62,450 bases of DNA from a virus (IMGVR_UViG_3300049012_000046:1-62450), one strand, 5' to 3'; counted from the first letter of the stretch, positions 2,632 to 26,768 are shown. The notes: generated by a model from the sequence alone, not told the origin. Made by a program: numbers and translations.

Positions 2632-2662
2632 CAGGGCCGCAACGGCCCGACTTCAAAGGAGA
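2632..2662 (+). repeat. 31-bp repeat copy 1 (hairpin GGGCC-GCAAC-GGCCC + ACTTCAAAGGAG)
   Basis: CAGGGCCGCAACGGCCCGACTTCAAAGGAGA, identical to 2892-2922. Confidence 0.95.
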
Positions 2663-2666
2663 AACG

Positions 2667-2882
2667 ATGGATGTCTATGTGCTCTGGAATGGCGGCGCCT
2701 GGCTCGTCAAGGAGCGTGATTTCGCCGAGCATCAGTCGCGCTGCGATCCGGTCAATTTCGATGGCCGGCGCTGGCTCGATGCGTGGAAGCTGATCTACGA
2801 TGTGGATGGCCTCGAGCACGCACGGGACAAGGCCAAGCTGATGTTCGGTGAGCGTGGCGAGCGCTGGAAGAACCCCGCCTAG
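2667..2882 (+). CDS. Hypothetical protein flanked by the 31-bp direct repeats
   Basis: 71 aa ORF with strong RBS, lying between the repeat copies. Confidence 0.8.
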   Translation: MDVYVLWNGGAWLVKERDFAEHQSRCDPVNFDGRRWLDAWKLIYDVDGLEHARDKAKLMFGERGERWKNPA

Positions 2883-2891
2883 CCAGTAACC

Positions 2892-2922
2892 CAGGGCCGC
2901 AACGGCCCGACTTCAAAGGAGA
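2892..2922 (+). repeat. 31-bp repeat copy 2
   Basis: Identical to 2632-2662; supplies the RBS for 2929. Confidence 0.95.
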
Positions 2923-2928
2923 TCGAAC

Positions 2929-3183
2929 ATGACGCACGATCGCCACGCCGAACAGACCTGGCGCACCCAGTTCGAAGGCGGCAACCCGGCCAACTGCCCG
3001 CGCTACCCGATCGGGCTGCCGCGCTTCCCGCACAAGCCTGCGACCAACTGGGACACCGTGGCCCTGCTGGTGCTCATCGCCTGCCTGGGCATCGGCTTCG
3101 CGGCCGGCTGCCTGGAGTGGCCCAGGGTGGGCCTGGGTGCGCTCGGCGTGGGCGTGGTTGTCGGACTGGTGGCGCTGGCATGA
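2929..3183 (+). CDS. Small membrane protein (2 TM)
   Basis: Two hydrophobic stretches in the C-terminal half. Confidence 0.75.
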   Translation: MTHDRHAEQTWRTQFEGGNPANCPRYPIGLPRFPHKPATNWDTVALLVLIACLGIGFAAGCLEWPRVGLGALGVGVVVGLVALA

Positions 3184-3555
3184 ACCTCGCCAACAGATGG
3201 AAGTTCGCCGTGGGCATCTCGCACCACACCACCGTGACCGTGAACGCACCCTACTACAAGCTGGCGGTCGATCGAGCACGCGAAGCGATGGACAAGCGCT
3301 ACGAGCGCCAAGACAGAGAGCCGCCCGTCGCCTGGGACCTTGCCCTGGTCGAAGCGTGGCACCACACACGAGGGGGAGACAGACCGTGAGCAAGCCCACA
3401 CGACTGGAGCTGCTGGAGTACGCACTGGAGGGCGTGCGTACGCTGCTCGGTTCGCACCCCGACCCGAACAGATATCCCGACGACATCAACGAGCTCGAAG
3501 CCCACCTGGAGCACATCGAGAAGTTGATCGAGCGCGAACGCGCGAAGGAGAAGAA

Positions 3556-3939
3556 GTGAAGCTCAGGCCCGCGCCCTACAACGCTGTCACGCACGTCCAG
3601 TCCGCCCTGCGCTCGCTGCAGCACGCCGCCGCGCTGCTGCGCTCGGCCGACTGCCCCAAGACACTCGAGCGCACCCGGCTTGCCATCAGCTCGTGTTACG
3701 GCGCGCTGCGCCACGCCGAGCGGCGCGAGCGTGCGCAGATGCGCACCCCGAACGATCTGCTGCGTGCAGACGGCCGCGTTGCAATCACACACGTCGCGCC
3801 TGATGGTGCGATCACGGTCGTTGGCAGAACCGCGACGGTGGCCGATGCGGAGGAGTTTCTCGCACTGTCCGCAACGATCGATCCCGACGAGCTCGAGGCC
3901 GGCAATTACGGCATCGATCCGCCCGAAGAACTGTGTTGA
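3556..3939 (+). CDS. Hypothetical protein
   Basis: GTGA-coupled start with RBS. Confidence 0.7.
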   Translation: MKLRPAPYNAVTHVQSALRSLQHAAALLRSADCPKTLERTRLAISSCYGALRHAERRERAQMRTPNDLLRADGRVAITHVAPDGAITVVGRTATVADAEEFLALSATIDPDELEAGNYGIDPPEELC

Positions 3940-4091
3940 AGGGAGGGACCCGAAATGATTGTCGCTGGCCACTGGCACCTGCGCGATGGCACCGTCATCG
4001 CAACCATCCAGCGCCCCGGCTGGATTGACCGCTGCATCGCCCGCCTGGTGCTGGGCTGGTGCTGGATTCCGACGGAAGGAGAACGCAAGTG

Positions 4092-4598
4092 ATGACCATC
4101 TACCACCTGGACGCGGAGACGTTTGCCAGGCTGGAACAGATCCTCACCCAGCTGTACGGCCATGGCGAGGTGCTCACGCCCGACGCGCGGCGCGACCTGG
4201 CGCACCGGCTTGGCCTGGTGGTCGACACGATCCGCTCGTGCATGGAGCAGGTGGAGGAGCCCCAACCGCAGCCGGAGCTCCAGCCGGAGTCGGACGTGAC
4301 GATGACGCAGCTCGAGAACATCGTGTACGAGCACTGGACGACGGTGCTGCAGCAGGCTGCGGCCAAGGAGGGCTGGTGCCTGTCGGTGTGCTACGGCAGC
4401 ATGTACGGGCCGCTGCAAGTGCAGTCGCTCGACAGCCCCGATGAAGGCGCGCCCCGCTTGGACAGCGACGACGAGGCGCATTTGATCGTGCGGCAGGGGA
4501 CCGAGCGCCACCACATGGAGGCGCTGCGCCTGCTGCGCATCTTCAACCCTGCGGAGTACGAGCGCGTGATGAACGATCACTCGCGCCTCGGCCGCTGA
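4092..4598 (+). CDS. Hypothetical protein
   Basis: TGATG-coupled start; 168 aa. Confidence 0.75.
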   Translation: MTIYHLDAETFARLEQILTQLYGHGEVLTPDARRDLAHRLGLVVDTIRSCMEQVEEPQPQPELQPESDVTMTQLENIVYEHWTTVLQQAAAKEGWCLSVCYGSMYGPLQVQSLDSPDEGAPRLDSDDEAHLIVRQGTERHHMEALRLLRIFNPAEYERVMNDHSRLGR

Positions 4599-4615
4599 CT
4601 TCAAAGGAGCAAACG

Positions 4616-4849
4616 ATGAAGACCAACGGGCAGCTACTCTACGAGCACAAGCATCCCGCCACGATTCGCGTGGTGCTCGCTGATGAGCGGGCCTTTGCGA
4701 CGAAGGACGACGTGTTCGAAGTGCCGAACCCGGCCGCGCCGGTGGCCTGGCGTTTCCTCACCGAAAGCTGCCGCAAGTCCTGGGAGACCAGCGCTGTCGG
4801 CCACTACCTCTTCAGCAAGGCCCAACAACTTCAAAGGAGCAACGAATGA
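4616..4849 (+). CDS. Hypothetical protein flanked by ACTTCAAAGGAGCAA repeats
   Basis: Motif at 4598-4612 and 4828-4842. Confidence 0.75.
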   Translation: MKTNGQLLYEHKHPATIRVVLADERAFATKDDVFEVPNPAAPVAWRFLTESCRKSWETSAVGHYLFSKAQQLQRSNE

Positions 4850-5202
4850 CCGAAGTCTTCTACACCCACGCGCAGATGACGCGCCTGCTCGAAGAGCAGC
4901 GCGCCGAGCTGCAGCAGACCATCAACGGCCTGGCTTCCAACGTGTATGCGTTGGAGCAGAAGGTGCGCGAGCAGGCCGAGGAGCTGGCCGAGCTCAGCCT
5001 GAAGGGCGTGCCCAACCTCGACTGCCTGCCCGAGGGCGACTACCTGCCGACGAAGACGGCCCTCGACCTGCTGGCCGACTACTGCTTCAACAAGCGGGCG
5101 GCCATGAACCTGCGTGCCAGCGGCCGCATCGAGCAGGCACTGGCGTACGAGCGGGACTGCGACCAGATCTACGGCCGGCTGCCGGAGTGGGCGAAATGGT
5201 GA
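4846..5202 (+). CDS. Coiled-coil hypothetical protein
   Basis: Heptad-like N-terminal half; RBS motif upstream. Confidence 0.75.
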   Translation: MTEVFYTHAQMTRLLEEQRAELQQTINGLASNVYALEQKVREQAEELAELSLKGVPNLDCLPEGDYLPTKTALDLLADYCFNKRAAMNLRASGRIEQALAYERDCDQIYGRLPEWAKW

Positions 5203-5567
5203 CCACGATCCATAACGTGGCTGAGCTGTGCGAGCAGCTCGGCGTCGAGCATCCCGAACAGATCGCAAGGTGCCTGTACAAGGCCACCGACTGCGGTGCC
5301 TGGATCAGGCTCAGCGCTGACTCTGTGCTCGTCGGCAGCATCGTGGAGGGCGCCGACTTCGGCACTGCCACCTACCGCTTGCGCTACCCGTTCACGATGG
5401 AGGACTTCGATGCACGCATCCAGGCGATCGAAGTCGAGGCCGACGCGATCTGGCAGTGGGCGAATCTGGAGGGCGAGGACGAGGACGGTAGGACAGCAGC
5501 CGAAGCCGGCTTGCCCCCACCGGACATCGAGTACCCAGAGCTGAACCCCGAGGGAAGGAGCAGCTGA
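5196..5567 (+). CDS. Acidic hypothetical protein
   Basis: Overlapping start; YKATDCGAW...GSIVEG motif. Confidence 0.7.
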   Translation: MVTTIHNVAELCEQLGVEHPEQIARCLYKATDCGAWIRLSADSVLVGSIVEGADFGTATYRLRYPFTMEDFDARIQAIEVEADAIWQWANLEGEDEDGRTAAEAGLPPPDIEYPELNPEGRSS

Positions 5568-6181
5568 TGAGCGCCTACCACGGTGACAAGGAGACCTTCG
5601 TCCACGACGGCCATCGCTTCGAGATGCGGATCGAGCACGACGACAGCATGGGCGCGCCCTGGGAAGAGCACGACGGGCATGGGCCGGTGCGCGTGGTGCG
5701 TGCCTACTACGGCCTGAAGGACACGGGCAAGAAGCGCCCCGGCGAGCGCGTGCTGCACCAAAGCGGCGGCGACTACTGGCTGTACGACTGGCAGGCGGCG
5801 TGCCGGCTCGCGCGCAAGGACGGCTGGGATGCCGACCCAATCGGCGAGCCCAGCCGCGTCGAGCGCGCGGTGCAGGCCGACTTCTATCGGCTACGCGGCT
5901 GGCTCGACGACCAGTGGTACTGGGTCGGCGTGTGCGTGCGCGAGGTGGCTGACGACCATCGAGCGCGCGACGACAGCAGCTGGTACGAGCACGCCCTCTG
6001 GGGCATCGAAAGCGACAGCCCCGACTACCACAAGGAGGTGGCACACCAGCTGGCGGAAGACATCCTGTACCCGCGACGCAAGGCCTGGCGCTTGGCCCTT
6101 GCCCAGGCGCGGGAGCAGCGCAACGCGGAACGGCTTGCGGCTGTCATGGCCGCACCAATCGGAGGTCTGTGGCATGGGTAG
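5567..6181 (+). CDS. Conserved phage hypothetical protein
   Basis: PWEEHDGHG...LRGWLDDQWYWVGV...LWGIESD motifs recalled from phage early proteins. Confidence 0.8.
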   Translation: MSAYHGDKETFVHDGHRFEMRIEHDDSMGAPWEEHDGHGPVRVVRAYYGLKDTGKKRPGERVLHQSGGDYWLYDWQAACRLARKDGWDADPIGEPSRVERAVQADFYRLRGWLDDQWYWVGVCVREVADDHRARDDSSWYEHALWGIESDSPDYHKEVAHQLAEDILYPRRKAWRLALAQAREQRNAERLAAVMAAPIGGLWHG

Positions 6182-6394
6182 CAATCTGGGGAGCCCGAGG
6201 GCGTTCTCGGCGCCGACCGAGGACGACATCAAGCAGGCCTGGCGCGCGGTCTCCAAGCTTGACTCGCTGGGCTACGTCACGTCGCTGGGCATGTCGGTGG
6301 CGCGCTGCGTGTATGCGATCGAGCAGATGCGCGAGGCGCTGGGCATGCACCGGCCCGATGTGCAGGAGTGGACGTTCAAGAAGGGAGACGACTG

Positions 6395-6802
6395 ATGGGC
6401 CTCTCGCTTGACCGTGTCATCGCCATGAAGTCGGTGCTCGTGCAGCGCATCGACGGCATGTTCGCAACCCTCATCAAGGAGCATCGCACGCAGGAGTGGC
6501 TGCTGGAGCGCAGGCGGGAGGAGATCTTCGATGCGCCCGACTACCAGCGCTTGCCCAAGTGGGCGCAGGAGCAGATCCGCGGCTATTACTTCGGCAAGGC
6601 GGACATGGTCAACCGGTACATGACGGTCTTCGCCTATCTGTACAAGGGCCAGCTGTACCGCACGACGTTGGACAAGCACAGCCCGTGGCCGACGTGGGAG
6701 GAGTCGCCGGTGGGCAATCAGATCTGCAACCGGTACGAGCAGTCGGGCTTCTGGTGGCCTGACGGCAAGATGTATTTCGCAACCACGAGGACCGAACAAT
6801 GA
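6395..6802 (+). CDS. Hypothetical protein
   Basis: TGATG-coupled; aromatic-rich, 135 aa. Confidence 0.75.
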   Translation: MGLSLDRVIAMKSVLVQRIDGMFATLIKEHRTQEWLLERRREEIFDAPDYQRLPKWAQEQIRGYYFGKADMVNRYMTVFAYLYKGQLYRTTLDKHSPWPTWEESPVGNQICNRYEQSGFWWPDGKMYFATTRTEQ

Positions 6803-7171
6803 TGAAACTTTGGACGGTGTGTGTCGACCTGGAGGTCGCTGCCGATACCGACGAGGAGGCGTATCGAATCGTCGAGGCTGCCATCCGTCGCCTGTTTGGG
6901 CCGGACATCCAGGACGGCGGCGTGACGTGCGTGTTCGACCCTGAAGACCCTGACGAAGACCAAGAGGAGTTTCCCGAATGACCAAACCCGACATCAACAC
7001 TCTGCGCATGCACCTGGTCGGCTGCGCCTTCCTGCTCTCGCGCATCCAGCACCACGTGCCCGAGATGGATCGCGAGTGCATCCACCAGGCACTGCGTGAC
7101 GTGGTGGACCTGTTCCCCGACAACTTCGAGCTGGTGAGAAGTTCCATCGGCCTCTGCCTGGAGATGAAGCT

Positions 7172-7471
7172 GTGATTCAATCCGATTCCGAAATTCGCCA
7201 CCACGCCGGCGGCACGACCATCACCGGGCCCGACGCGATGAACTACTTCCGCGCCGTGCAGATCAAGCTGTTCATCGGCCTGTACATCAAGACGGGCATG
7301 ATCCCGACGCGGGGCGTGACGATCTCCAGGATGCTGAAGATGGCCACGGAGTACACGGGGCAGAAGTACAAGAACAGCCGGCCCGAGTGGGAGCGGGCGC
7401 GCGCCGACATGGAGGTGTGGTGCGCCACGATGAAGGCGGCGCTGCCGATCGTGCACGAGGGGGAGCAATGA
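7172..7471 (+). CDS. Hypothetical phage protein
   Basis: GTGA-coupled; KTGMIPTRG...TGQKYK motif. Confidence 0.75.
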   Translation: MIQSDSEIRHHAGGTTITGPDAMNYFRAVQIKLFIGLYIKTGMIPTRGVTISRMLKMATEYTGQKYKNSRPEWERARADMEVWCATMKAALPIVHEGEQ

Positions 7472-8123
7472 AGATCCAGCTGGCCAAGTCTCCCTGCTGG
7501 CCACCGTACAGTGTGGTCGTCACCGACGCCCACGGTCGCGAGCTGTGGGATTGGGACTGTGCATCCAGCAGCGTCGAAGACACCTTGGCACTGGCGGCGC
7601 AGCAGTACCCCGGCGAAGAAGTCATCGGCTTCGATGACCCGCGCCACTACAGCCAACAAGGAGGCAAGCGGTGAGCATGATCGTCGAAGGTGGCGCCGAC
7701 GGCCTGGCGCACTTCACGTTCTTCCGGCTGGGCTCGGCGCTGCACGTGGCCAACCACCTGATGACCAACAGCGTCAGCTTCTACTTCGAGCCGGCGGTGG
7801 GCTGCAATACGCACATCACCGTCAACGGTGCGGCGGCCGAGCGCCTGTTCGCGTGGTGCGAGGACCAGGGGCTGACGTTCAAGGTGGAAAGGCAGGTGCA
7901 GCATGACAACTGACCCCGGCCGCGAAGCGCTAGCCACGCTGCAGCGGATCGTCGATGAGTGTGCCGAGCTGCGCCGCTTGGCCTATGACCAGGCGGCGAC
8001 GATCGCGGTGCTCAGGAACGAGCACAACCAGATGCGGGGTTTGCTGGTAGGCCTTGCGGCAACCAGCCGGATTCAGCCGGCGCAGCGTGCGCACATCGCA
8101 GCCGTTCTCGAAAGGACCAAGCC

Positions 8124-8669
8124 TTGAATCTGAAACCCGGCCGCTACCGGCTGACCACGACCATCAAGAACCCGGCGCGCGATCGGCGCCGCACCACCGA
8201 CTGGCGCGTCTGCAAGGACGAGATCAAGGAGGGCACCGAGTTCAACATCTGGCCGCACACGCTCGACTGGGACATCACGTGCAAGGAGACGGGCAAGGTG
8301 CTCAGACCCGCCGGCGAGACCGTCGGCTACAAGCTGGCGCCTCGCAGCAACATGTACAGGCTGAGCCAGTACCTGCTGGTCAAGCTCGACGGCAGCCCGT
8401 GGCACAGGGACCACAAGGACAAGGTGGATGCCCTTGCTCAGGCTCTGCTGGTGAACTTCGAGTACGTCGACGACGAGGTAGAGCCCGAGACCAGGGAGCA
8501 GCGCATCGAGCGCGAGCGCGATGAGCTGCGCGCCGCGCTGGTCGAGCTGCACACCCTCGTGGGCAACGTGCTGACTGACAACCAGCTCGACTTCAAGATC
8601 GGCGATCGCCCGACCATCCGCCAGCGCTACGAGCCGATCACCAAGCTGCTCGAAAGGATTCACCCGTGA
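8124..8669 (+). CDS. Hypothetical protein
   Basis: TTGA-coupled 181 aa ORF with phage-typical codon use. Confidence 0.75.
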   Translation: MNLKPGRYRLTTTIKNPARDRRRTTDWRVCKDEIKEGTEFNIWPHTLDWDITCKETGKVLRPAGETVGYKLAPRSNMYRLSQYLLVKLDGSPWHRDHKDKVDALAQALLVNFEYVDDEVEPETREQRIERERDELRAALVELHTLVGNVLTDNQLDFKIGDRPTIRQRYEPITKLLERIHP

Positions 8670-9013
8670 ACGAAGTCAAGATCTGCACCTTCACCAACCC
8701 CGTCGGCATCCCGATGGCCGCCAAGCTGGTGCCTGTCGGCCGGCGCTATGGCAAGGACATGTGCTGCATCAACGACGAGGGCGTGGCATTCCAGAACGGT
8801 CCGCAGCCGATGGTCGAGTTCTACGACCTGCGCTGGGACCATACGGCGCTCGGCCAGTTCATCAGCCGCTACTACGTCAGCACGCTGCGCGAGCGGCCGA
8901 TCGGCGGGCTGTGCCTGGACGGCGGCGTGCCGGACTGGCACATCAGCGAACGCAACTTCTCGTTCGTGATGTTCGAACTGGACTTGTGCTACCCGAGGGC
9001 GAACGGAGGATGA
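8666..9013 (+). CDS. Conserved phage hypothetical protein
   Basis: VEFYD...GQFISRYYVSTL...GLCLDGG motif. Confidence 0.8.
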   Translation: MNEVKICTFTNPVGIPMAAKLVPVGRRYGKDMCCINDEGVAFQNGPQPMVEFYDLRWDHTALGQFISRYYVSTLRERPIGGLCLDGGVPDWHISERNFSFVMFELDLCYPRANGG

Positions 9014-9260
9014 GCCGCGACCATCTTCTCGGGTCGACTGCGGTACCCTCCCGGCCGCTCGGTCCGCCCACCTTCGAGCCTGGCGACAGTGTGCGGTTCA
9101 AGCCGCCGTACATGGATCGCAAGATCTACACCGTGAGCCGTGTCGTGGGCTCGGGCCGGAAGGCCGATGTGTGGTTCGTCGGTGGCGGTACCGGCTGGGC
9201 GATGAACCTGGAAAGAGTCGCCAAGCGCCAACGCAGTGGCATCAACTTCAAAGGAGCAAC

Positions 9261-9605
9261 ATGAAGATCGCTTTCAACACTGGCCGCCTGTACACCAAGC
9301 AGGGCCAGCCGATGACCGTGACGTTGATCGAGAACCCCGACTACACCTACTCGGCCGTCTTCGTCGACCACGGCCGCGGCATCGACGGCGTCGTGCCAAT
9401 GTTCCGCAGGCCTGACTACAGCTACGACCTGGCGCGTCTGGTGATGCATGCCTACGACCATGGGCAGTACCGTCACGTGAGGACGTACGACCAGAAGGAC
9501 GGCAAGTACGTGGAGACCGCCGAGTACCAGGCCAAGGAGGCGATGCGCAAGGTGGACTGGGCCGAAACCGCCGGCGCCGAGACGATCGAGAAAGGGTGGC
9601 TGTGA
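9261..9605 (+). CDS. Hypothetical phage protein
   Basis: ACTTCAAAGGAG motif at 9245-9256; FNTGRLYT..GQ...FVDHGRGIDG motif. Confidence 0.8.
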   Translation: MKIAFNTGRLYTKQGQPMTVTLIENPDYTYSAVFVDHGRGIDGVVPMFRRPDYSYDLARLVMHAYDHGQYRHVRTYDQKDGKYVETAEYQAKEAMRKVDWAETAGAETIEKGWL

Positions 9606-9882
9606 TGGACGAGAAGGAATTTCACGCGGCGATCTCGGCGACCTGCAGGTCGATGGATCATGTGGCCGCCAACCTGCGCAGCCTGGCCATGTCATTCAGC
9701 CGCACCGGCAACTCGGTCGTCGCGAAGGAGCTGACCAGCTACGCCGATCTGCTGGACGACCGGGCGGAGCAGCTGCAGGCCGATCGCGGTGCGCACCTGC
9801 GGCAGCAGTTCGACGAGTCGACCCAGCAAATGGGGCGCATCCTGACGTCGCTGGCGAACAAGGTCACAGGGGAGGGCAGGTG

Positions 9883-10143
9883 ATGGCACTCGCGCTCAAG
9901 CGATACACCGCCAACGCTGGCGACTTCTATCGGGACGTGCTCGGTCAAGCACTCGACGGTGGCCGCACCATCTCGATCAACACGCTGGGTCGCGCCATCT
10001 ACGAGGGGCAGATTGTCGAGTTGAGCCCGGTCGGTGTTCATCTGGAGTGGACGAACGGCGGCGTCCCAGGCTACCGAGAATACAGTCAGGTGTTCATCGC
10101 CATCGAGCATATCGTTGGCATCAGCGTCAAGGGGGTCAGGTGA
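9883..10143 (+). CDS. Possible Sm/Hfq-like fold protein
   Basis: Helix followed by beta strands (YEGQIVEL...FIAIEHIVGISV) resembling Sm1/Sm2 motifs. Confidence 0.45.
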   Translation: MALALKRYTANAGDFYRDVLGQALDGGRTISINTLGRAIYEGQIVELSPVGVHLEWTNGGVPGYREYSQVFIAIEHIVGISVKGVR

Positions 10144-10976
10144 TGGCGCACTACTTCGCTGATGCCGCGGACTGCATGTGGCGGCTGGCCCAGGTGGCCG
10201 CGGACGACGCCTACGCCAACAAGATCGGCGCCCAGCTTGCCGAGGCGTTGGGTGTCAAGCGTGACACGCAGCACCCCGAGGGCTGGGCCACCACCTACGG
10301 CTGGAAGACCGACGCCGGCTTGGCGCGCACGGCGCTGCGCATTCTGATGGAGGCACAGTGATCAATCGGCTCGAAGCCAAGTACATCCTGGCCGGCAATC
10401 ACGAGCTGCTGACGCAGCTGTTCAACGAACGCGACCGGCTGCGCAACATGCTCAAGTGGGTGCGGCGCGTTCTGCCCGCGGCCGCCGACTGCCCGGAGCC
10501 GGGCGTCAACTTGGTCAACTACACCGACATCGAGTGGGATCAGCTGTGCGAGGTGACCAAGATGATTGACGCGGAGCTGGGCCCGAGCGCCCTGGTGAAG
10601 CTGTTCAAGGAGAAGCTGAAGTGAACGAAGACAAACCCACCGCAGTTGTCACCCTGAAGATCAAGTCGAACACCGGCTATGCGGCCACCAACAACTTCGC
10701 CGGCGTCACGCCCGAGCAGTACGGCGAGGCCTGCGGCGTGCTCAATGGCAACGTCGATCCGATGCGCATGCGCCACCTGCTGCAGGAGTTCAAGCGCTTC
10801 GCCGAGAGCGGGCAGTCGTTCATCTACCCGGCGGGCACGTGGCAGGAGTTGCAGGATTTGCTGAAGTGACCCAGCGTGACACCGCGCCCCAGCTTCTGCT
10901 CACGACCACCTACTGCTGTGAGCGGGCTGTTGGGACTGGCCGGCGCATGTGCGCCGAATGTGAAGGGAGTTTTCCG

Positions 10977-11324
10977 ATGTATCGCGATCACGACGAAGAC
11001 GACCCGCCCCCGCTGCCCCACCGGTGGGAGATCTGCAGCCGCTGCCGCGGCGAGGGCAAGCACTGCAACCCGGCGATCGACGGCAATGGCCTGACACGCG
11101 AGGACTTCGACGAGGACCCCGACTTCGCCGAGATGTACTTCAGCGGGGCGTACGACGTGCCTTGCCACGAGTGCGGCGGCCGCGGCAGCGTCAAGGTGCC
11201 CGACGTCAGCCAGATGACCTTCGCGCAGAAGCGCCAGTACGTGCTGCAGCTGCGCGGCGGGCGTGAGCGCGACGCGGCCTGGGAGAGCGAGCGCTATCTC
11301 CGGATGGCAGAAGGGTGGGAATGA
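10977..11324 (+). CDS. DnaJ-type zinc-finger-like protein
   Basis: CSRCRGEG and CHECGGRG (CxxCxGxG) repeats; RBS GAAGGGAG. Confidence 0.75.
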   Translation: MYRDHDEDDPPPLPHRWEICSRCRGEGKHCNPAIDGNGLTREDFDEDPDFAEMYFSGAYDVPCHECGGRGSVKVPDVSQMTFAQKRQYVLQLRGGRERDAAWESERYLRMAEGWE

Positions 11325-11352
11325 TCTAGGGGGACTGTCACATTTCCCCGAA

Positions 11353-11381
11353 TTGACCCTGGGCACGTGATCTGCTATTCC
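11353..11381 (+). promoter_or_regulatory. Putative sigma70 promoter
   Basis: TTGACC-17 nt-TATTCC with extended -10 TG, in an intergenic gap upstream of 11407. Confidence 0.55.
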
Positions 11382-11646
11382 TTGCAGCATTGGGTAAGGA
11401 GTCCGTATGCAGATTCATCGTGTCCTGGTCATCCACCCGCCCGAGCCGCAGTCAACCACCCAGGTGATCGGCACCCGGTTGGTGCTGTGCGACTCAGTCG
11501 AGTGCGCGATGGCGATCGTCAAGGGGCGCGAGCCCGACGGTTGCACCATCGCCTATGACCACGCCTACGGGCCAGGCGAAGTTATCAAGCATGCCCACAT
11601 GACGATGCCGCGGTCGGAGGCCGCGCAGTGGGCGCGAGAGGCCCCA

Positions 11647-11797
11647 CTCGTCGCTTGAGCTTGATCTAAGCGACGAGCCGTGAAGAAAGTCTGACTGACA
11701 ACTTTACCGAGTAGTTGAAAGGATGCTATCGTCTCGTGCAGAGACGAGGCGGAGCTACGACCACCCCACGCGGCGCAATGCCGCAACTTCAAAGGAG
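11647..11797 (+). promoter_or_regulatory. Regulatory intergenic region: hairpin, putative promoter, palindrome, start motif
   Basis: 10-bp stem 11647-11677; TTTACC-18-TATCGT (11703-11732) with TG; inverted repeat TCGTCTC-5-GAGACGA 11729-11747; hairpin + ACTTCAAAGGAG 11770-11797. Confidence 0.55.
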
Positions 11798-11803
11798 ACC
11801 ATC

Positions 11804-12103
11804 ATGGTCATCACGCATGTTGCTACCCGTGAACTCCATCGTGTCGGCGCCGACCTGACGCCGAACCAATTCCAGGCCCTGCAGGCCGCGCTGCGCGCCG
11901 CCGAGCGCTCCGGTACCACCCTGGCCCAGATCGCGGCCCACGACGCCGCCTTGGCCGACCTGCGCGTGCCCAAGCGCTGCGCGGCGCTGCTCGACCTTGC
12001 CAAGCGGGCGGTGTGGACGCGCCGCGATGCGCTGCGTCAGGAGGAGAAGGAGCTCGTGGCCAGCTTCGGCCGGCTGGATCTGCGGGCGAAGTTGGTGTCG
12101 TGA
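11804..12103 (+). CDS. Helical hypothetical protein
   Basis: Strong RBS motif; first gene after the putative promoter. Confidence 0.75.
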   Translation: MVITHVATRELHRVGADLTPNQFQALQAALRAAERSGTTLAQIAAHDAALADLRVPKRCAALLDLAKRAVWTRRDALRQEEKELVASFGRLDLRAKLVS

Positions 12104-12784
12104 TGAAAGTCGAAGTTACCAAGGAGCGCACCGTCCCCGCGGCGTGCGCGATCGCCATTCCGATCAAGTGGGGGATGACCTTCACGCTGACGGTGGACGC
12201 GCCCAACGTCGAGGCGCACCTGGCGCTGGAGGAGATCGCCCGCGCCTTCAATGATCGCAAGGCGCTGCGCGAGATGCTGCAGCAGGTCCTGGACCGCTGG
12301 GACCAGCCGCTGCGGCCGCTGAGTGCGGCCGATGTCAATTGCATCCAGGCGCTGCTCAACCAGACCAAGGAGATCGAGTGAAGTCCTGCTTCAACTGTGG
12401 CCGCAGCCAACTGAACCCGGGTCAGCCGGGCCTGCTGTGCACGGAACCGCGCGGCGCGGCCTGGCGCGACCACACCAACCCGGGCGTCTGCGCCTTGCCT
12501 GGCGCCCCCGACAGCCCGAGCATCGTTCGCATCAATGCGCTGCGCTGCGAGACGCTGGCCACGTACTGCAGCGTGTACATCGAGGAGAGCTGCGCGTGAA
12601 GACTCTCTACTTCGTCTCGAAGTACGACTTCAAGAACAACCTGTGGATCCGCTTTCTCGTGACGGCGCGCTGCCCCGAGCAGGCGAGCAAACAGGTGGCC
12701 GACTACTGCGAGGGCATCGACGGCCAGCTCAAGGCGCCGCTGATGGTGTGCAGCACGTCGCAAGACGTTTTCATGGAGGTCTGA

Positions 12785-13069
12785 ATGCCGGCAATCACAG
12801 CAGACATGGTGATGGCACTGTCCGCATGCACGGAGTGCCCGATGGTCGAGTGCAAGGCAGCACTTGTCGCTTGCGGCGGTGACATGCAGCGGGCGATCGA
12901 CTGGCTGCGCGCGCCGTCGCACATTCGTGAGCGGCGCCGGCAAGAAGCGCTCGAGGCGCGCGTTGATCGGCTGGAGGAGCTGGTCACGCAGCAGGCTGCC
13001 CTGCTGGCCAAGGTGCCGGCACTGATCGCCGAGATGGCCGGCGCTCCTCGCAAGCGGGAGGCGGAATGA
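12785..13069 (+). CDS. Protein with EF-Ts N-terminal UBA-like domain plus coiled coil
   Basis: ITADMVMALSACTECPMVECKAALVACGGDMQRAIDWLR parallels EF-Ts ITA..VKELR..TG..MMDCKKAL....GD...AI..LR. Confidence 0.75.
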   Translation: MPAITADMVMALSACTECPMVECKAALVACGGDMQRAIDWLRAPSHIRERRRQEALEARVDRLEELVTQQAALLAKVPALIAEMAGAPRKREAE

Positions 13070-13338
13070 CCAGCCCCGAGCGCAAGAAGGCGCAGGCCGA
13101 GGCCTACGAGAGCGGCTACCAGGCGTTTCGTGACGGCGCCCACTCTTCACACAACCCGTACGGCTGGGGCGACGGCTGCAGCAGCCGCTGGTTGGATGGC
13201 TGGGAGGCTGCGAGGCGTGAGCACGCGGCCTCCCAGGCACAGGAGAAGGAGGACGAGATCGACGCGCGCATCCGGCGCATCGTGCTGGAGGAGCTGGTGA
13301 AGCACCGGCTGATCGCAGTGCGGGAGTACGGCGAATGA
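13066..13338 (+). CDS. Rmf/CrpP-fold protein (ribosome modulation factor-like)
   Basis: AYESGYQA...G.....NPY.......WLDGWEAA matches Rmf A..RGYQAG..G.....CPY......WLGGW..A. Confidence 0.7.
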   Translation: MTSPERKKAQAEAYESGYQAFRDGAHSSHNPYGWGDGCSSRWLDGWEAARREHAASQAQEKEDEIDARIRRIVLEELVKHRLIAVREYGE

Positions 13339-13751
13339 GCCCCAATGACCACGCCCTCTACAAGGCGTTCCAGCGGATGTGCGATCGGTTCGCCGAGATC
13401 ATCGAGGAGCACCCCGAGCTGGCGACCGCAGAGCTCTCAGCGGAGGCCGACGAGCTGGATCGCCTCGCCGACATCTACGAGCGTGAGCACGCCGAGGACA
13501 TGTGGGTGGTCGTCTACAGCCCGGAGACCAACGAGGAGTACCTGCGCCGCACGGTGGGCGAGCACGAGCACCTCGACACGCTGGCCATTGCGCAGTCGAT
13601 CGCCGAAGAGTGCGACCAGCTGATCGCCGAGCCCAACGGCCACATCCCGAACTGCTGCGGCGACATCCGCGTCGAGTTCCGCCGCGACCCCGACAACTCG
13701 ACCCTCATCTGGTCGGGCGAGTCCTTCTATTTCAAGCGAGAGGACGAATGA
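13335..13751 (+). CDS. Acidic hypothetical protein
   Basis: ATGA-coupled; D/E-rich 138 aa. Confidence 0.75.
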   Translation: MSPNDHALYKAFQRMCDRFAEIIEEHPELATAELSAEADELDRLADIYEREHAEDMWVVVYSPETNEEYLRRTVGEHEHLDTLAIAQSIAEECDQLIAEPNGHIPNCCGDIRVEFRRDPDNSTLIWSGESFYFKREDE

Positions 13752-14003
13752 CATGAGCCTTGCCCTGACCAGCGGCACCGTTCGCAGCCTGAGCCCGCGC
13801 ACCAGGCTGAAGAAGCGGCATCTCGACGCGCTGCAAGCGGCCATCTCCGATGCTGAGGCCTGGCGCGGCTCGCTGATGGGGCACTACCCCGACGACGAGG
13901 AGAGCATCCTGGCCGAGCAGGAACGGCTTGCCAAGTTCGACGCACGCATCAAGGTGATGCGCGAAGCGTTGGCCTTGGTGCGCAAGATGAACAAGGAGAA
14001 GTG

Positions 14004-14321
14004 ATGGACTGGACCGAACGAAACCGCGAACAGACAGCCAATGACCGTCTCGACCAGCTCGCTCGCCACGAGCAACAGCTGATCGATCGCATCGCGGCGT
14101 TGGAGGCCAAGGTCGACAAGCGGCTTGTCGATGTGGGCGAGCGTGTGATGAAGGCCGACCAGCTGCTGATGCAGCGGATCGTGGAGCTCGAGGTGTGGAA
14201 GGAAGGGCAGGACCAGATCAATCAGCGCGTCGTGCACAACATGGAAGGCGCCATTGCGGCGCTGAAGGACCATCACCAGACGCTGGAGATGGTGCTGGAA
14301 GTCGTGAAGGTGAGGAGTTAG
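14004..14321 (+). CDS. Coiled-coil hypothetical protein
   Basis: Heptad pattern throughout; RBS AAGGAG. Confidence 0.75.
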   Translation: MDWTERNREQTANDRLDQLARHEQQLIDRIAALEAKVDKRLVDVGERVMKADQLLMQRIVELEVWKEGQDQINQRVVHNMEGAIAALKDHHQTLEMVLEVVKVRS

Positions 14322-14323
14322 CG

Positions 14324-14674
14324 ATGGATCAGATCAACATCAACGACCACAACAGCCAGGCTGCGCGGTTCCTGCGCGAGGCGCTCGAGGCCTGGCGCAA
14401 GAAGCAGCCGTACTACAGCATTCAGCCGTTCAACCCGTTCAACAAGGTGAACGTCACGCTGATGGCCAACGACATCGAGCTGCCGTTCACCGAGGTCGTG
14501 GAGACCATCTACGCGAGGATGCACGAGCATTTCGAGCGGCGGGTGCTGGTCGAGGCGCGCGAGCTGGTGGACAGGGCCCAGCTCGACAAGCTGCAGGAGA
14601 CGCTGTCGCAGGTGGATGAGACCATCAATGCGGCGCTGCACGCGCTCTGGGAGCAGAAGCAGCGCGGCCGATGA
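14324..14674 (+). CDS. Hypothetical protein
   Basis: RBS GAGGAG; 116 aa. Confidence 0.75.
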   Translation: MDQININDHNSQAARFLREALEAWRKKQPYYSIQPFNPFNKVNVTLMANDIELPFTEVVETIYARMHEHFERRVLVEARELVDRAQLDKLQETLSQVDETINAALHALWEQKQRGR

Positions 14675-14769
14675 GATGGACCCGCTTTCATTCCTTGCCG
14701 GCCTGGCCGTCGGCGTCGTCGTGACGCTGGCGGGCTACTGGCTGATCCACACGTTCTTCGGAGACTGAC

Positions 14770-14982
14770 ATGGCCGACTACACAGCATCCGTCTGGTTTG
14801 AGCGCGATCGCGCCATGGTCGCGCTGCTCGACAACGACAAGGAGGTCTTCTGTCTTTGGGATGACGACGTGTACGGGGCGATTCAGGACGGCTTCCTGCC
14901 CAAGCCGCGCCACCCGCGGCCGAGCGAGGCCGAGTGGCTGCCGTGCCTGATCGAGTATGCCAACTACTACGGACTGATCTGA
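14770..14982 (+). CDS. Conserved phage hypothetical protein
   Basis: WFERDR...WDDDV..AI.DGFL motif. Confidence 0.75.
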   Translation: MADYTASVWFERDRAMVALLDNDKEVFCLWDDDVYGAIQDGFLPKPRHPRPSEAEWLPCLIEYANYYGLI

Positions 14983-14983
14983 C

Positions 14984-15319
14984 ATGACCGAAGGCCAATA
15001 CCAAGAGCAGTACGGCATCGATCCGCCTGCGCCCGGCCAGCCATCTCCCAACGAGGAGATCTGGACGACTCGCGACGGCCGGAAGATCCCGGTCGGCGAG
15101 ATGGACGAGGACCACGTGCGCAATGCGCTGCGCATGTGCATCCGGGTGATGCGTAAGAACAAGGCCAAGCTGGCCGAGCTGAAGGCTGTGCTCAAGCCGC
15201 TGCTCGACGACTACCACGAGATGCGCAAGGAGCGCAGGTTGCGCATGGAGCAGCGCCTGGATCAGTTCCCCGACGATGACGTCTGGGGCGACAACGACAG
15301 CACACAAGGAGGTAAGTGA
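14984..15319 (+). CDS. Phage hypothetical protein
   Basis: WTTRDGRKIPVGEMDEDHVRNALRM motif. Confidence 0.75.
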   Translation: MTEGQYQEQYGIDPPAPGQPSPNEEIWTTRDGRKIPVGEMDEDHVRNALRMCIRVMRKNKAKLAELKAVLKPLLDDYHEMRKERRLRMEQRLDQFPDDDVWGDNDSTQGGK

Positions 15320-15524
15320 GGTGACGACAGCACACCTGCTGGCCGCCGCACTCGAGGAGTGCTTGCCGTACTTCGAGGGGGCGCAGAACCGGAGTCTCAA
15401 TGACTGGCGAGCAGCTGATGCCACCAGACGTGAGGCCGAGGCCGCTCTGTGCCGCGCAGCCCAGTATCGCGTCCTTCTTGCGCAGGCCCACAGCAACAAC
15501 GACAGCACACAAGGAGGTAAGTGA
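15291..15524 (+). repeat. 29-bp exact direct repeats (15291-15319 and 15496-15524) flanking ORF 15321-15524
   Basis: ACAACGACAGCACACAAGGAGGTAAGTGA occurs twice; both ORFs end NDSTQGGK*. Confidence 0.95.
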
Positions 15525-15773
15525 ATGGGACAAGCCAAGCAACGCGGCACCTTCGAGGAGCGCAGGAAGTTGGCGCTGGATCGTGCGGCCGCCGAGGCGC
15601 TGCGCAAGGCCGAGGCGGAGCTCGAGCGCGTGGAGCGTCAGCGCGCCTTCGAAGCGACCTTGCCCGCGCACGAGCAAGCGCTGCTCCGCGAGCACCGGCT
15701 GCGGGCGCAGGTGCGCATCGCGCAGCTGATGGGGTTGCCGTTGATGATGACCAAGGGAAAGGAGAGCCTGTGA
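15525..15773 (+). CDS. Helical phage protein (MGQAKQRGTFEER family)
   Basis: Recognisable N-terminal motif; RBS from the repeat. Confidence 0.75.
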   Translation: MGQAKQRGTFEERRKLALDRAAAEALRKAEAELERVERQRAFEATLPAHEQALLREHRLRAQVRIAQLMGLPLMMTKGKESL

Positions 15774-15984
15774 ACCGTACCTACCGCTGGGTGATCGAGC
15801 CCAACACCAAGTTCCCCACGACGCACATGCTGGAGGCCAGCTACAACCCGCTGTGCACGCACCGGCACGCAGTCAACTGCGACAGCTGCAGCATCCCGAA
15901 CGTCATCGCGCACGCCGTGGCGTTCGCCGCGAACTTCGGCGTGATGCGCATGGAGATCGACGGCCAGCTGCTGGAGTGCGTGAA

Positions 15985-16272
15985 GTGAGCGAGCTGCTGG
16001 GCTGTCCCTGGGACGGTGAGAAGCCGACCCTGGAGGTCCGCAAGGTGGGCCACCGTGATGAGCCGAGCACGTATGTCTACTACGAGTGCCCGAAGTGCGG
16101 GGCCACGCGAGGCACCTGCGTGGACTACGAAGGCGAGGAGCTGGCGCATGCCTTCATGTACGGCTACGGCTTCGCGAAGCCGCCTGGCTGGCCCAGCCTG
16201 GATTGGTGGCATGCAGCAATGCTGGCCATGGAGTCGACGGTGCGAGGGAAGTGGAACAGGAGGGCGTCGTGA
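15985..16272 (+). CDS. Lar-like (restriction alleviation) zinc-ribbon protein
   Basis: ELLGCPWDG...ECPKCGA...KWNRR follows the Lar pattern (L.PCPFCG...C..CGA...WNRR). Confidence 0.6.
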   Translation: MSELLGCPWDGEKPTLEVRKVGHRDEPSTYVYYECPKCGATRGTCVDYEGEELAHAFMYGYGFAKPPGWPSLDWWHAAMLAMESTVRGKWNRRAS

Positions 16273-17337
16273 AGCGAAGCATTAGCGATGACGACCTGTG
16301 CTCCGACTGCAAGCTGTGTCGCTATAACCCCGGCGGCATGAGCGAGTGCGAGTCGGACTGGCCAGGGCTGTTCGATGCGAACGGCTACTGCGTCGAGTGC
16401 GTGCACTTCATAGCTGTCGAGAAGCGGGGTGACAACTGGGAGTTGACCGATGAATGACGGTTCTTTCTACACCGGCCCGGATGGGCCCATCACGCTGGAG
16501 ATGATCGAGCATGCCAAGGCGGCGTTCGACGCCGCCTGCGGTCCCGAGCCCTTCGGCGAATACATGCGCAAGGCGGGCTTCCCGCCCGAGGACAACTGGG
16601 TCCTCTTCCTGCCGGCGTCGATGGTCGTCGACAAGACGTTGCTGCCTCGCTATGTGCAGGTGACGACGCTGTTCGAAGACCCGACCTTCATCATGTCACC
16701 CTTCCTGAGCAATGCCCTCGACCAACTCTACCGCTCCGAACGCTGAGCAGATCGCCGCCATCGAGCGCTTTGCAGATCTACGCGGCCGGCTGTGGAAGTC
16801 GGCTCTTCGCCACTACTGGGAGCGTGGCTTCCCGGTCTGGATGGGCGATGACGCAGCGCTGCTGCAGCAGCTGCGCAACACGTGCGGGCCGCGATGGCTG
16901 ATCAAGTATCGGAGACCGAAATGATCGACGACTACAAGGCCTACAACTACTGGAGAAAGGAGATGACGCACAAGGTGGTCGACCACAAACACGTCGAGCT
17001 CGGCTTGCTTGGCAAGCCGCACACGGTGTACTTCAAGAGCCTGGGGGCGGCAATGCACTACGCCAAGGCGCTGAGCAACGCGGGCCACGGCTTTCGGTAC
17101 CAGGTGTTTCCGTGCGGGGAGAGGGAATGATCGGCCTCATGTCTGTGAAGGACTACGCCAAGGCGTATCCCGATCATCACTGCCTGATCGTTCGGAACTT
17201 CGCCGGCTATGCCATCTGTGCGCAGCGCGGCGGCGTGCTCGAGCATTTCCCGTCGCGCTCCGATTGCATGGAGGTGCTGACGGCTGCCGGCTACGAGCTG
17301 CGCAACCGGCAGTGGGTTCAAAGGAAGGAGGATTGTC

Positions 17338-17580
17338 ATGCCCTGGGATCGTGAGTCCGACGAGGAGTACGACGACGGCTACACCCGCGAGAGCTTCGAG
17401 CGGGCCGAGGAAGACACGCCGGAGAACGCCGAGCCCTTGCCCGAGCGGTTCGTCGTCTGCGTGGGGATGTCCGCGCAGATGAAGATCTACGGGCCGTTCG
17501 ACTCGTATGACAGTGCCGATGAGTTCGCAGATCGGATCTGCTCCTCGGAGCCGGTGTGGGTGCAGCAGTTGGAGGATTGA
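17338..17580 (+). CDS. Highly acidic small protein
   Basis: 23 D/E vs 6 K/R in 80 aa (hand count); RBS GGAGG. Confidence 0.75.
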   Translation: MPWDRESDEEYDDGYTRESFERAEEDTPENAEPLPERFVVCVGMSAQMKIYGPFDSYDSADEFADRICSSEPVWVQQLED

Positions 17581-18018
17581 GATGACCAGCTACCAGAAGA
17601 TCACCAACTTCCTGCACGAGCACGGCCGGCGCCTGTCCGTCATCGACGGGCCCAACAAGTCGGAGCTCGAATTCTGGACGCTGGGCAAGCGCGTGCTGAT
17701 CCTGCAGCGCTTCGACGAGCAGTACGGCGGCTGGGAGCTCTTCACCAGCTCGCTCTACAACCGAGCCGACCTGGTCCTCGACCAGCTGCAGGGGCTGCTG
17801 CATGAGTGAGATCCGAATCGCACGCCCCTTCCACCACATCGTGGACGTCAACGGCAAGCGTCGGGCGTGCTTCAACGAGTACAACGGCGGCGCCGAGGCC
17901 GCGGAGAAGAACCGCAAGCCGGGCGAGCGCGTCGAGCCGCGTGCTTGCCCCTTTGCAGGCTGCCCTTGCAGCCCGGATGCGCACCCGCCGTGCGGACTTT
18001 GCTACGAATGAGAGCTCA

Positions 18019-18393
18019 ATGAAGCGAGTCGTCATCGACTACACGAACCATCGCGGCGAGCGCAGCAAGCGCGTGATCGAGCCGCTGGCCGAGCACTTTC
18101 ACTACGCCCGCAACGACTACCACACCGAGCCGCAGTGGCTGCTCGATGCGTTCGACGTGTGCAAGGGTGAGATGCGCACCTTCGCGGTGAAGGACATCCA
18201 CAGCTGGCAGCCGTTCGACAACGAGGTGCGCTACTCGGTGTGGCGTGGCGACGTTCAGGGCGGCGACTACGAGCTGGTGCTGTTCGAACACCTGACCATT
18301 CACGAGAAGGCGCAGACGGCTGCCGGCACGCTCAAGCCGACGCATGGCCGGCACGACTACCTGCTGCCCAAGCACATGCGGGCAAAAGCATGA
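18019..18393 (+). CDS. Stand-alone WYL-like domain protein
   Basis: IDYTNHRGERSKRVIEP...QWLLDAFDVCKGEMRTFAVKDI matches the WYL consensus (Y....G....R.V.P...WYL.A.D......R.F....I). Confidence 0.75.
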   Translation: MKRVVIDYTNHRGERSKRVIEPLAEHFHYARNDYHTEPQWLLDAFDVCKGEMRTFAVKDIHSWQPFDNEVRYSVWRGDVQGGDYELVLFEHLTIHEKAQTAAGTLKPTHGRHDYLLPKHMRAKA

Positions 18394-18411
18394 CCCGCAA
18401 GGAGTAGCGAG

Positions 18412-18741
18412 ATGCACCCCTTCTACAACTTCATCTCGTTCGACGACGCGGGCAACTGGGGCTGGGTGCCGGCGCCGGGCAAGTTCCGGCGCGACCCCTT
18501 CCTGGACGAGAAGGGGAACGCGCAGCTGCCGTCGGAGATCGGCTTCGAGATCCTGAGTACCGGCGAGCAGACGACGGCGTGGGAGCGCGTGTTCGACAAC
18601 GGGCGCGTGCTGATCACCAACCAGGCTGGCACGTCGCACGAGTACGGCCTGGTGGCGCGCATCACCTACCTCGGCCCGGACAACAGGGTCTGGGCCGAGT
18701 ACAACGCCGGCGCGGACGGCATCACGCCGCGCCGGAAGTAA
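18412..18741 (+). CDS. Hypothetical protein
   Basis: RBS AAGGAG; 109 aa. Confidence 0.75.
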   Translation: MHPFYNFISFDDAGNWGWVPAPGKFRRDPFLDEKGNAQLPSEIGFEILSTGEQTTAWERVFDNGRVLITNQAGTSHEYGLVARITYLGPDNRVWAEYNAGADGITPRRK

Positions 18742-19046
18742 CTTCAAAGGAGATTGAGTGAAGATTCTTTACACCGTGGTGCTGCTGCGGCCCAAGTACC
18801 TGTGCAGCGATGTCGAGTACGGCATCGACACGTACACCGCGCAGCTGGCGCTGGATCCCAGCAAGGCGTTCACGGACGACATCATCTGGGCGGCGCGCGA
18901 GGAGGCGTATCAGGCGGACCGGAAGGCGCATCGCAATGGGGACGTGCCACGCGGCCCCAAGCTGCGTGCGGACTACAAGGTCTGCATGATCTTCGAGGGG
19001 CATCCGAAGATTGTGTTGTTCGGGTGGCAGGCTTAAGGAGCAAACG

Positions 19047-19661: not shown

Positions 19662-20090
19662 ATTCCGCGCATGAAGTGGACCGCTTGGCGCAGGCGTTCA
19701 TTGCGCACCTGCGCCACAACCTGAGCTTCGATGAGCTGCACCTCATCGACCAGGGTTACGAGGCACCGCCGGCGTTGATCTACGCGGCGTTCCTCGATAC
19801 GTTCAATCGCATGCCTGACCACGACGAGGACAGCATGCTGATTGGTGTGGCCTGGCAGACCGCCAGGCGGATGGGCTTCTTGCCCGTGCATTGAAGGAAG
19901 AGTGGATGAGCTGGTTTCACACGTTGTTCAACCGCCGCGTCGCGGACAAGCTGATCGAGCTGAAGGACGAAGCCGAACGGCATCACATCGATCACGAGAT
20001 CGCGGCACGCCACCACGCGGCCCTTGCCGAGATGTATGCCCGGCGCGTGGTGTGGGCGCAGGAGCAACTCAACTTCCGAGGAGAGACGAA

Positions 20091-25052: not shown

Positions 25053-25228
25053 TGCAAGACTCCATAATCAAAAGGAGGGAAAGTACCAATATAGCTTTTG
25101 TGTCAGCTTCCGCAAGGGGTTCGACCCCCTAACAGAGTGGCTAAATTGTAATGCAGTTAGGGGAAGCCCTAACGAAAATCGGTAAGTCCTACCGCTATTG
25201 TGTAGATTGTTTAGAAAGGGATTCTGCA

Positions 25229-26697: not shown

Positions 26698-26768
26698 CCA
26701 GACTGAAGTTGCAGGATGTGTCCATTTCGGGGCACAATCCGTTTCCCTTTTAGCAAAGGATTCTGCTT

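Follow-up and report, generated by a model that had tools for sequence, protein, structure and literature searches.

The 62,450-bp record of an uncultured virus, IMGVR_UViG_3300049012_000046:1-62450, is referred to here, at its full length, as the window. It carries a 12-nucleotide (nt) sequence, ACTTCAAAGGAG, that recurs directly ahead of the starts of small genes and is preceded at three of its seven sites by a short hairpin. The element is best described as a real and conserved start-associated sequence with an optional stem-loop, and it marks places where genes are swapped between strains. With a confidence that we would put at about even, the 12-mer is an extended translation-initiation region in a gene array driven by recombination, and the hairpin is a separate module. 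The array consists of approximately 80 to 90 small plus-strand genes at 1 to 24.6 kb, most of which overlap through ATGA-type junctions according to a codon-usage gene caller, and is called the presumed early array below.

Seven exact copies of the 12-mer were found in the window, all on the plus strand, as an initial annotation of the sequence had reported (Table 1). Shuffled sequences contained 0.11 copies on average and 2 at most, and the window held no additional match at one mismatch or less. Every copy lies 4 to 7 nt ahead of the start codon, ATG in six cases and GTG in one, of an open reading frame (ORF) of 71 to 118 amino acids (aa). All copies fall at 2.6 to 18.8 kb, with none at 25 to 62 kb. 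The proteins encoded downstream are not paralogs and belong to no Pfam family. AAAGGAG can pair with the 3' tail of 16S rRNA, whereas ACTTC lies beyond the end of that tail and cannot; AAAGGAG occurs 12 times on the plus strand, and in 7 of these cases it is preceded by the same five letters. The conserved part thus extends beyond the Shine-Dalgarno (SD) core, in agreement with the initial annotation. Because of its position, its strand and the variable spacing to the start, the 12-mer is read as a ribosome-binding site: it is a translation-initiation region made up of a 7-nt SD sequence and an A/U-rich extension. Copies 4 and 5 lie inside upstream ORFs in different frames, indicating that the constraint acts on nucleotides.

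The motif favors starts that follow a gap. Of the 20 junctions whose gap measured 10 nt or more, 5 had the motif, compared with 2 of the other 56 (Fisher P = 0.012), although some of these gaps may hide genes that the caller missed. The tagged start regions had a predicted mean unpaired probability of 0.575, compared with 0.477 for 70 other array genes (P = 0.008), and a GC content of 44%, compared with 58% for the other array genes.

We searched 21 relatives over their whole length for the 12-mer at one mismatch or less and found it enriched in G001 and G015 only, the other 19 having either no match or one; 29 more distant relatives contained no match to the motif. In G001 and G015, and thus in 2 of 50 related phages, ACTTNAAAGGAG recurs ahead of unrelated genes. 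The element is a real cis element tied to gene starts. These phages have GC contents of 61% and 48%, and their PolA proteins are 53% and 44% identical to that of the window, respectively. For the pattern ACTT.AAAGGA[AG], G001 has 8 matches and G015 has 12, with no more than 0.09 expected and none on the opposite strand; a start codon and an ORF follow in 7 of the 8 and 10 of the 12 cases. Motif position 5 varies freely in both phages. The proteins behind these copies have no similarity to each other or to those of the window; tagged proteins of 667 and 670 aa in G001 and G015 had no Pfam family and matched only a PHROG of unknown function. Among viral contigs, the 12-mer followed by ATG was found at 116 or more loci, and all 80 that were listed had single matches, which is chance-level noise.

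Orthologous genes provided a further comparison, in which start regions were better conserved than proteins. The variant reported by the initial annotation near 19032 is real (CTTAAGGAGCAAACGATG), and its letters are nearly identical at the start of the G003 ortholog of gene 19047, the two proteins being 45% identical. The start region at 18741 of gene 18758 and that of its G001 ortholog share diverged, related motif letters at 30% aa identity.

Strain variants of the phage show how genes and start regions are exchanged. A metagenome scan with a pattern of the fixed loop, the outer stem pair and the 12-mer (3' arm plus 12-mer) returned 21 loci. The stem was fully paired in four of them, each a strain variant of this phage with 93 to 99.7% identity; the remaining 17 had 0 to 4 pairs and unrelated flanks, and no new stem type was gained. 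Strains that are 93 to 98% identical were compared over window positions 7000 to 19000 for L220 and 1778 to 4262 for L228. In L228 and L233, the ORF at 2667 to 2882 has been swapped for an unrelated ORF of 81 aa, which had no tblastn match in the window or in eight relatives. Homology stops at 2662 and picks up again at 2915, so that each boundary falls in one of the two motif copies, and the TAA stop of the replacement ORF runs into AAAGGAG. In the window, these two copies belong to a 31-nt direct repeat (2632 to 2662 and 2892 to 2922) that is 100% identical. An additional 12-mer in L233 (position 1258) seemed to bear a hairpin, for which RNAfold gave no support.

In L220, 12 indel or replacement junctions were found within 12 kb, all at gene boundaries, and several had overlaps of 7 to 25 nt that included the SD sequence or the start codon. 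Counted by gene, the variants showed at least 12 indels of single genes, with joints at microhomologies in start sites. A 32-nt direct repeat (97% identical; 15288 to 15319 and 15493 to 15524, plus strand), comprising C-terminal codons, SD, stop and start, flanks the ORF at 15321 to 15524; L220 has one repeat unit and lacks the ORF. The 12-mer itself was identical at all five sites covered by variants while the flanks changed. At site 9245, for example, the 25 to 32 nt immediately upstream differ in L220, and the 12-mer and the gene are kept. These comparisons show that the presumed early array is hyperplastic and that gene turnover at start-site homologies is general. The 31-nt cassette pair is one clear case of this turnover, which accounts for the presence of one start region before unrelated genes.

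The initial annotation also described three hairpins exactly 1 nt upstream of the 12-mer, and these were recovered: a 5-bp stem with a GCAAY loop occurs exactly three times on the plus strand, compared with 0.19 in shuffled sequences, and each ends 1 nt before a 12-mer. The pentaloop that it assigned was borne out in its letters, which are present in all three copies, and not in its predicted fold, since RNAfold preferred a 6-bp stem with a CAA triloop in copies 1 and 2. Its claim of covariation stood in that two base pairs are changed on both sides between the stem types, with a possible sixth pair changing from G-C to G-U; how far this evidence reaches is weighed below. In the third hairpin of L220 the loop ends in C rather than T, which makes the sixth pair G-C instead of G-U. 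A covariance model built from the three copies found only those three full members in the window, no intact hairpin homolog was found in the 671,525 bases of eight relatives, and the hairpin-plus-motif pattern had no match in viral contigs. The supposed remnant before copy 4, GCAAGGCCC, is present at 4815 to 4823 and cannot fold, and the same 9-mer recurs at 52684. Within the window, no U-run follows the hairpin. The presence in one genome of two palindromes with the same loop and spacing would favor a folded strand over a binding site for a dimeric protein.

Hairpins also stand ahead of motif copies in G001 and G015. In G001, one motif copy stands 2 nt behind an 8-bp hairpin that comes after a stop codon. 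In G015 (L062; 84.4 to 85.9 kb, minus strand), a conserved cassette of approximately 45 nt, consisting of an imperfect 11- to 13-bp hairpin, a T5 run, GCCCT and ACTTCAAAGGA(G/A), lies ahead of four consecutive small genes. Its hairpin and T5 run were read as terminator-like, and the terminator scan did not call them. The recurring design is a stop codon, a stem-loop and a start tag. Separately, a GC palindrome, CGGCGCATGTGCGCCG, is found in the window at 10941 to 10956 (plus strand), approximately 9 nt upstream of the SD of gene 10977, which, taken with the other cases, suggests that a stem-loop just ahead of the ribosome site is a common layout in the intergenic gaps here.

We propose that AAAGGAG would serve as a long SD sequence and ACTTC as an A/U-rich, largely unpaired extension, the two together resembling the enhancer and SD core of T7 gene 10, so that ACTTC may have enhancer activity. 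The tag would serve some of the presumed early genes, chiefly genes without translational coupling to their upstream neighbor. Recombination at short homologies within start regions would bring genes in, remove them and replace them, copying the start region along with each incoming gene and keeping the copies alike, to the point of letter-for-letter identity. The hairpin, a short GC stem-loop behind the stop of the preceding gene that appears to be maintained by compensatory changes, would most likely act in RNA, as an intercistronic barrier, a stabilizer or a weak terminator; a decay barrier and a processing boundary are candidate forms of such an intercistronic structure.

Several points weigh against this proposal. 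The seven copies are identical and have few intermediates, a pattern more suggestive of recent spread than of independent selection. In L228 and L233, the stop of the replacement ORF abuts AAAGGAG, so that gene 2929 has an SD without ACTTC or the hairpin; this gene, at least, can do without the extension. The 12-mer plays no part at most of the 12 junctions in L220, which makes start-site recombination a general feature here and not a property of the motif. Hairpin copies 1 and 2 belong to one identical 31-nt repeat, so that the covariation rests on two independent hairpin sequences, and 54 of 500 shuffles did as well. The folding z-scores of the hairpins (-1.1 to -1.9) correspond to an unremarkable stability at such a GC content. 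Finally, the gene calls were made with a simple codon-usage caller of our own, and the contigs from an RNA library that match the array (described below) are no proof of transcription, their ends and levels not being readable.

Table 1. Copies of the 12-mer, related start regions and hairpins in the window
Feature	Position	Strand	Context
12-mer copy 1	2650..2661	+	ATG 2667, 71-aa ORF
12-mer copy 2	2910..2921	+	ATG 2929, 84-aa ORF; strains L228 and L233 lack ACTTC and the hairpin here
12-mer copy 3	4598..4609	+	First A is the final base of the upstream TGA stop; ATG 4616
12-mer copy 4	4828..4839	+	Within the 3' end of gene 4616-4849; ATG 4846
12-mer copy 5	9245..9256	+	Within the upstream ORF, in a frame different from copy 4; ATG 9261
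12-mer copy 6	11786..11797	+	ATG 11804; closes a 145-nt intergenic gap
12-mer copy 7	18741..18752	+	First A is the final base of the upstream TAA stop; GTG 18758
Variant start region CTTAAGGAGCAAACGATG	19032..19049	+	Gene 19047-19661
Degenerate copy ACTTCCGAGGAG	20072..20083	+	Before ATG 20091
Diverged copy: hairpin GCCGC-GCTT-GCGGC, then GCA, then ACTGAAAGGAG	689..716	+	Before ATG 721; weak, 12.8 bits
Hairpin copy 1, GGGCC-GCAAC-GGCCC	2634..2648	+	14 nt past the stop of gene 2401-2619; centroid -11.7 kcal/mol
Hairpin copy 2	2894..2908	+	Part of the direct repeat 2892-2922
Hairpin copy 3, GCGGC-GCAAT-GCCGC	11770..11784	+	Loop GCAAC in strain L220

The window as a whole has a GC content of 64.9% and an estimated completeness of 57%, and it encodes a tape-measure protein, a J-like tail protein, PolA, a helicase, a primase and SbcCD. 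Its PolA is approximately 27% identical to the PolA proteins of Vibrio and Pseudomonas phages, with no close isolate, and homologs of PolA mark out a large family of metagenomic phages, approximately 82 to 93 kb in size. Searches of 50,697 phage records by megablast and blastn returned no close relatives except for one 162-nt match, and single-protein scans of viral contigs found none. Relative to eight relatives the array genes are ORFans: homologs of them were almost entirely lacking there, whereas the replication and tail genes do have homologs. The 81 proteins called at 1 to 27 kb, that is, the array and the next few genes, included seven Pfam families, with one protein each. The stretch is contained in 23 soil or rhizosphere DNA runs and one RNA run, as short and fragmentary contigs; no differences were listed at the motif sites, though cover there is uncertain. 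Contigs of the rhizosphere metatranscriptome library X24 are identical to pieces of the array and include one of 541 nt (window 9322 to 9862) that lies over most of the tagged gene at 9261 to 9605.

Other repeats were noted in the window and its relatives. A second repeated start-region motif, TTAG(A/C)AAAGG(G)ATTCTGC, occurs on the plus strand at 25211 to 25227 and 26750 to 26766, before genes 25229 and 26768, and a similar box stands ahead of the G001 ortholog of 26768 (48% aa identity). G003 (L076-L080) has a tag of its own, CTAAGGAG, which is present 25 times on the PolA strand and not at all on the other, mostly as AACCCTAAGGAG behind a pyrimidine box; this YTCCYC box could pair with the SD. 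The same phage has a tandem repeat array with units of approximately 24 nt near 67.2 to 67.6 kb, in which ATGGCCCCGGG was counted 13 times. The 11-mer CCAGACACCAG occurs 34 times in G008 (L095-L099), probably as a tandem array. In the tape-measure gene of the window (minus strand; 62018 to 62373), the same 9-mer is found on the plus strand at 62018, 62105 and 62192 (87-nt spacing) and again at 62365, and the 11-mer CCTCGGCGATC occurs seven times in the window, which suggests tandem repeats within that gene.

We weighed other explanations of the element. One, which we consider unlikely, is that the 12-mer, with or without the hairpin, is a regulon tag that is bound or cut by a dedicated trans-acting factor coordinating the early genes. 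A protein or an RNA, encoded by phage or host, might be that factor, for example a repressor or activator of translation or an endoribonuclease that cuts the SD. A dedicated factor has been proposed for the start-associated sequences (SAS) of Cluster K mycobacteriophages, analogous elements that are likewise suspected to be factor sites. The identity of the copies in the window, their invariance in strain variants with changing flanks, and the conservation of ACTT, whose letters are unable to pair with 16S rRNA, in three phages that differ widely in GC content all fit such a factor. However, position 5 of the motif is free to vary in G001 and G015, gene 2929 is untagged in a close strain, and none of the seven Pfam families among the 81 proteins is a known RNA-binding regulator. 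Recognition by a phage protein had been part of the initial annotation. We found no gene common only to the ACTT-type phages G000, G001 and G015, so that there is no pointer to a dedicated phage protein; no phage gene emerged as a candidate for encoding such a binding protein, which does not exclude one.

One array protein deserves mention in this context. A 90-aa protein encoded at 13066 to 13338 (plus strand) matched the Pfam family ribosome modulation factor (RMF), PF04957, over the whole profile, with 24.4 bits against a cut-off of 27.9. An RMF-like protein encoded within the array would suit a regulon, although the match is sub-threshold in G000, weaker in G015 and absent from G001, and the gene is gone from L220, in which one of the junctions deletes it. 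As a correlate of the motif the protein was rejected, there being no clean link because G001 has the motif without an RMF-like match.

A second alternative holds that ACTTC and the hairpin are functionless passengers, neutral scars copied along with an ordinary strong SD during cassette insertion at short homologies. Much of the strain evidence would suit it: the identical 31-nt repeat flanks one small ORF, a gene replacement is bounded by repeats, the 32-nt start-region repeat (15288 and 15493) flanks an ORF missing from L220, and L228 and L233 presumably express gene 2929 even though it lacks ACTTC there. The initial annotation had itself named a strong ribosome-binding site spread by duplication as the competing explanation, and this was partly borne out, by the cassette-bounded replacement and by the gene 2929 ortholog that lacks ACTTC and the hairpin. 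Against this, double-sided changes preserve the pairing of the stem, and G001 and G015, whose PolA proteins are only 44 to 53% identical to that of the window and whose early genes are unrelated, are also enriched in the motif. Neutral sequence would not survive divergence at that level. Even so, phages that exchange cassettes within a common gene pool could maintain the motif although it played no part in translation. We rate the scar explanation as rather improbable.

A more speculative idea, to which we attach a similarly small likelihood, would give the element two jobs at once. ACTTNAAAGGAG, often behind a stem-loop, might be a portable "start adaptor" of a soil-phage lineage, acting both as a factor-aided translation-initiation signal, as suspected for SAS, and as shared homology for the exchange of early ORFans within a gene pool, akin to attC in integron cassettes. 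The RMF-like protein could then join a translational take-over that favors tagged messages.

It is very improbable that the conserved letters signal transcription, either as a promoter or as the initial bases of the transcript, and serve a modified host polymerase or a phage polymerase that has escaped recognition. A C-rich box (AACCCTCA, or ACCCTCA in G001) does stand ahead of some copies, and one G001 copy lies behind TTGACA-N18-TAAAGT. On the other hand, sigma-70-like sites were not enriched, with one observed in 20 kb, on the other strand, compared with 2.4 expected, and 8 compared with 19.7 expected in G015. A T7-type RNA polymerase was found in none of five records, although the control genomes were also negative, leaving the sensitivity of that search unproven. 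Copies that lie within coding sequence and have a variable spacing of 4 to 7 nt fit an SD better than a promoter.

Least probable of all, and close to negligible in our estimation, is a boxB- or nut-like antitermination site, one of the roles that the initial annotation suggested, at which an N-like protein would bind the hairpin and give read-through of terminators in the early array. With the lambda nut site (boxA and boxB, bound by N) the window hairpin shares an early-region location, a 5-bp GC stem with compensatory changes and a 5-nt loop starting with G, and in G015 the 12-mer follows the longer, terminator-looking hairpin and T5 run, where read-through must occur; yet no box resembling the boxA consensus was found at two mismatches or less on the plus strand within approximately 100 nt upstream of 2634, 2894 or 11770, and the hairpins directly abut the SD, with two of them 260 nt apart in tandem around one small gene. 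The loop is also of another type. The GNRA-like boxB pentaloop has G first, A last and one base flipped out, whereas GCAAC and GCAAT end in a pyrimidine with no closing A, and a triloop is predicted in two of the three copies. Nut sites are expected to follow an early promoter and to precede terminators. A terminator scan of the plus strand of the array found a single weak terminator-like site, promoter- and terminator-like sites were not enriched, the 81 proteins included no antiterminator family and no N-like protein, and Rfam, searched over the whole window at gathering thresholds, gave no match.

Our preferred reading of the 12-mer as a start-associated sequence can be set beside three known systems. 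The A/U-rich "epsilon" enhancer in the leader of T7 gene 10 raises translation (PMC8748333). In NC_001604 this leader reads ACTTTAAGAAGGAG, behind a 5' stem-loop. It resembles the forms in G001 and G015 (ACTTTAAAGGAG) and in the window (ACTTCAAAGGAG) in having ACTTTAA and then AGGAG, and in the order of hairpin, A/U-rich stretch and SD. Two extra bases set the T7 leader apart, as do a hairpin at the 5' end of the transcript, approximately 30 nt further upstream, and its occurrence as a single site with no repeat family. The resemblance is only suggestive and may be due to chance.

In T4-type phages, an effective terminator and a strong sigma-70 promoter are joined in the PeSL (promoter-early stem-loop) cassettes (Arbiol et al. 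2010, PMC2839356; Comeau et al. 2014, PMC4122927). Like the element described here, they are conserved regulatory cassettes with a stem-loop between small ORFans in a hyperplastic region. They also bound indels and replacements among close relatives, as seen in L228 and L233 at 2662 and 2915, with direct repeats flanking single ORFs. In contrast, no promoter was detectable in the window, the window stem-loop has no U-run, and the conserved core is the ribosome-binding region.

The closest analogue is the SAS of Cluster K mycobacteriophages, known since 2011, and in view of it the element is not of an undescribed kind, as the initial annotation had supposed. SAS is a 13-bp asymmetric repeat with an SD core, present in 11 to 19 copies, 3 to 9 bp before starts and in one orientation (PMC3203893). 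It is found in the non-structural half of the genome, ahead of different gene families and preferentially in larger gaps, and its conservation goes past the letters that pair with rRNA; roughly half of the copies are directly preceded by an inverted repeat, a form termed extended SAS, or ESAS (PMC3203893). The role of SAS was still called unknown in 2024-2025, and ESAS is now thought to hold promoters (PMC11373665, PMC12699233). The window element matches SAS in its SD core, its single orientation (seven of seven on the plus strand) and its nearness to starts, as well as in its non-structural location, unrelated gene families, gap preference and conservation past the rRNA-pairing letters and across phages. 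However, the Cluster K consensus, GGGATAGGAGCCC, is unrelated to the window 12-mer, and the Cluster K phages are actinobacteriophages. Because both the sequence and the lineage, an uncultured PolA family, differ, the window element is an analogue of SAS and not a member. An inverted repeat upstream of a subset of copies (three of seven in the window) is shared with ESAS, although ESAS repeats are imperfect, 17 bp long, have SigA-like -35 and -10 hexamers and show no covariation of an RNA stem, whereas the window stem is 5 to 6 bp, co-varies and lacks promoter hexamers. Recombination junctions at the element, seen in the strain variants of the window, are a further difference from SAS and ESAS.

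The tag thus resembles SAS rather than a lambda-type antitermination site. It is kept across phages with GC contents from 48 to 65%, and it delimits gene swaps in natural strain variants, linking two ideas that are usually kept apart, strong shared ribosome sites and modular gene shuffling. An independent instance with an unrelated sequence in a different, uncultured lineage suggests that start-associated sequences such as those of Cluster K are no curiosity but part of how phage early regions are generally laid out.

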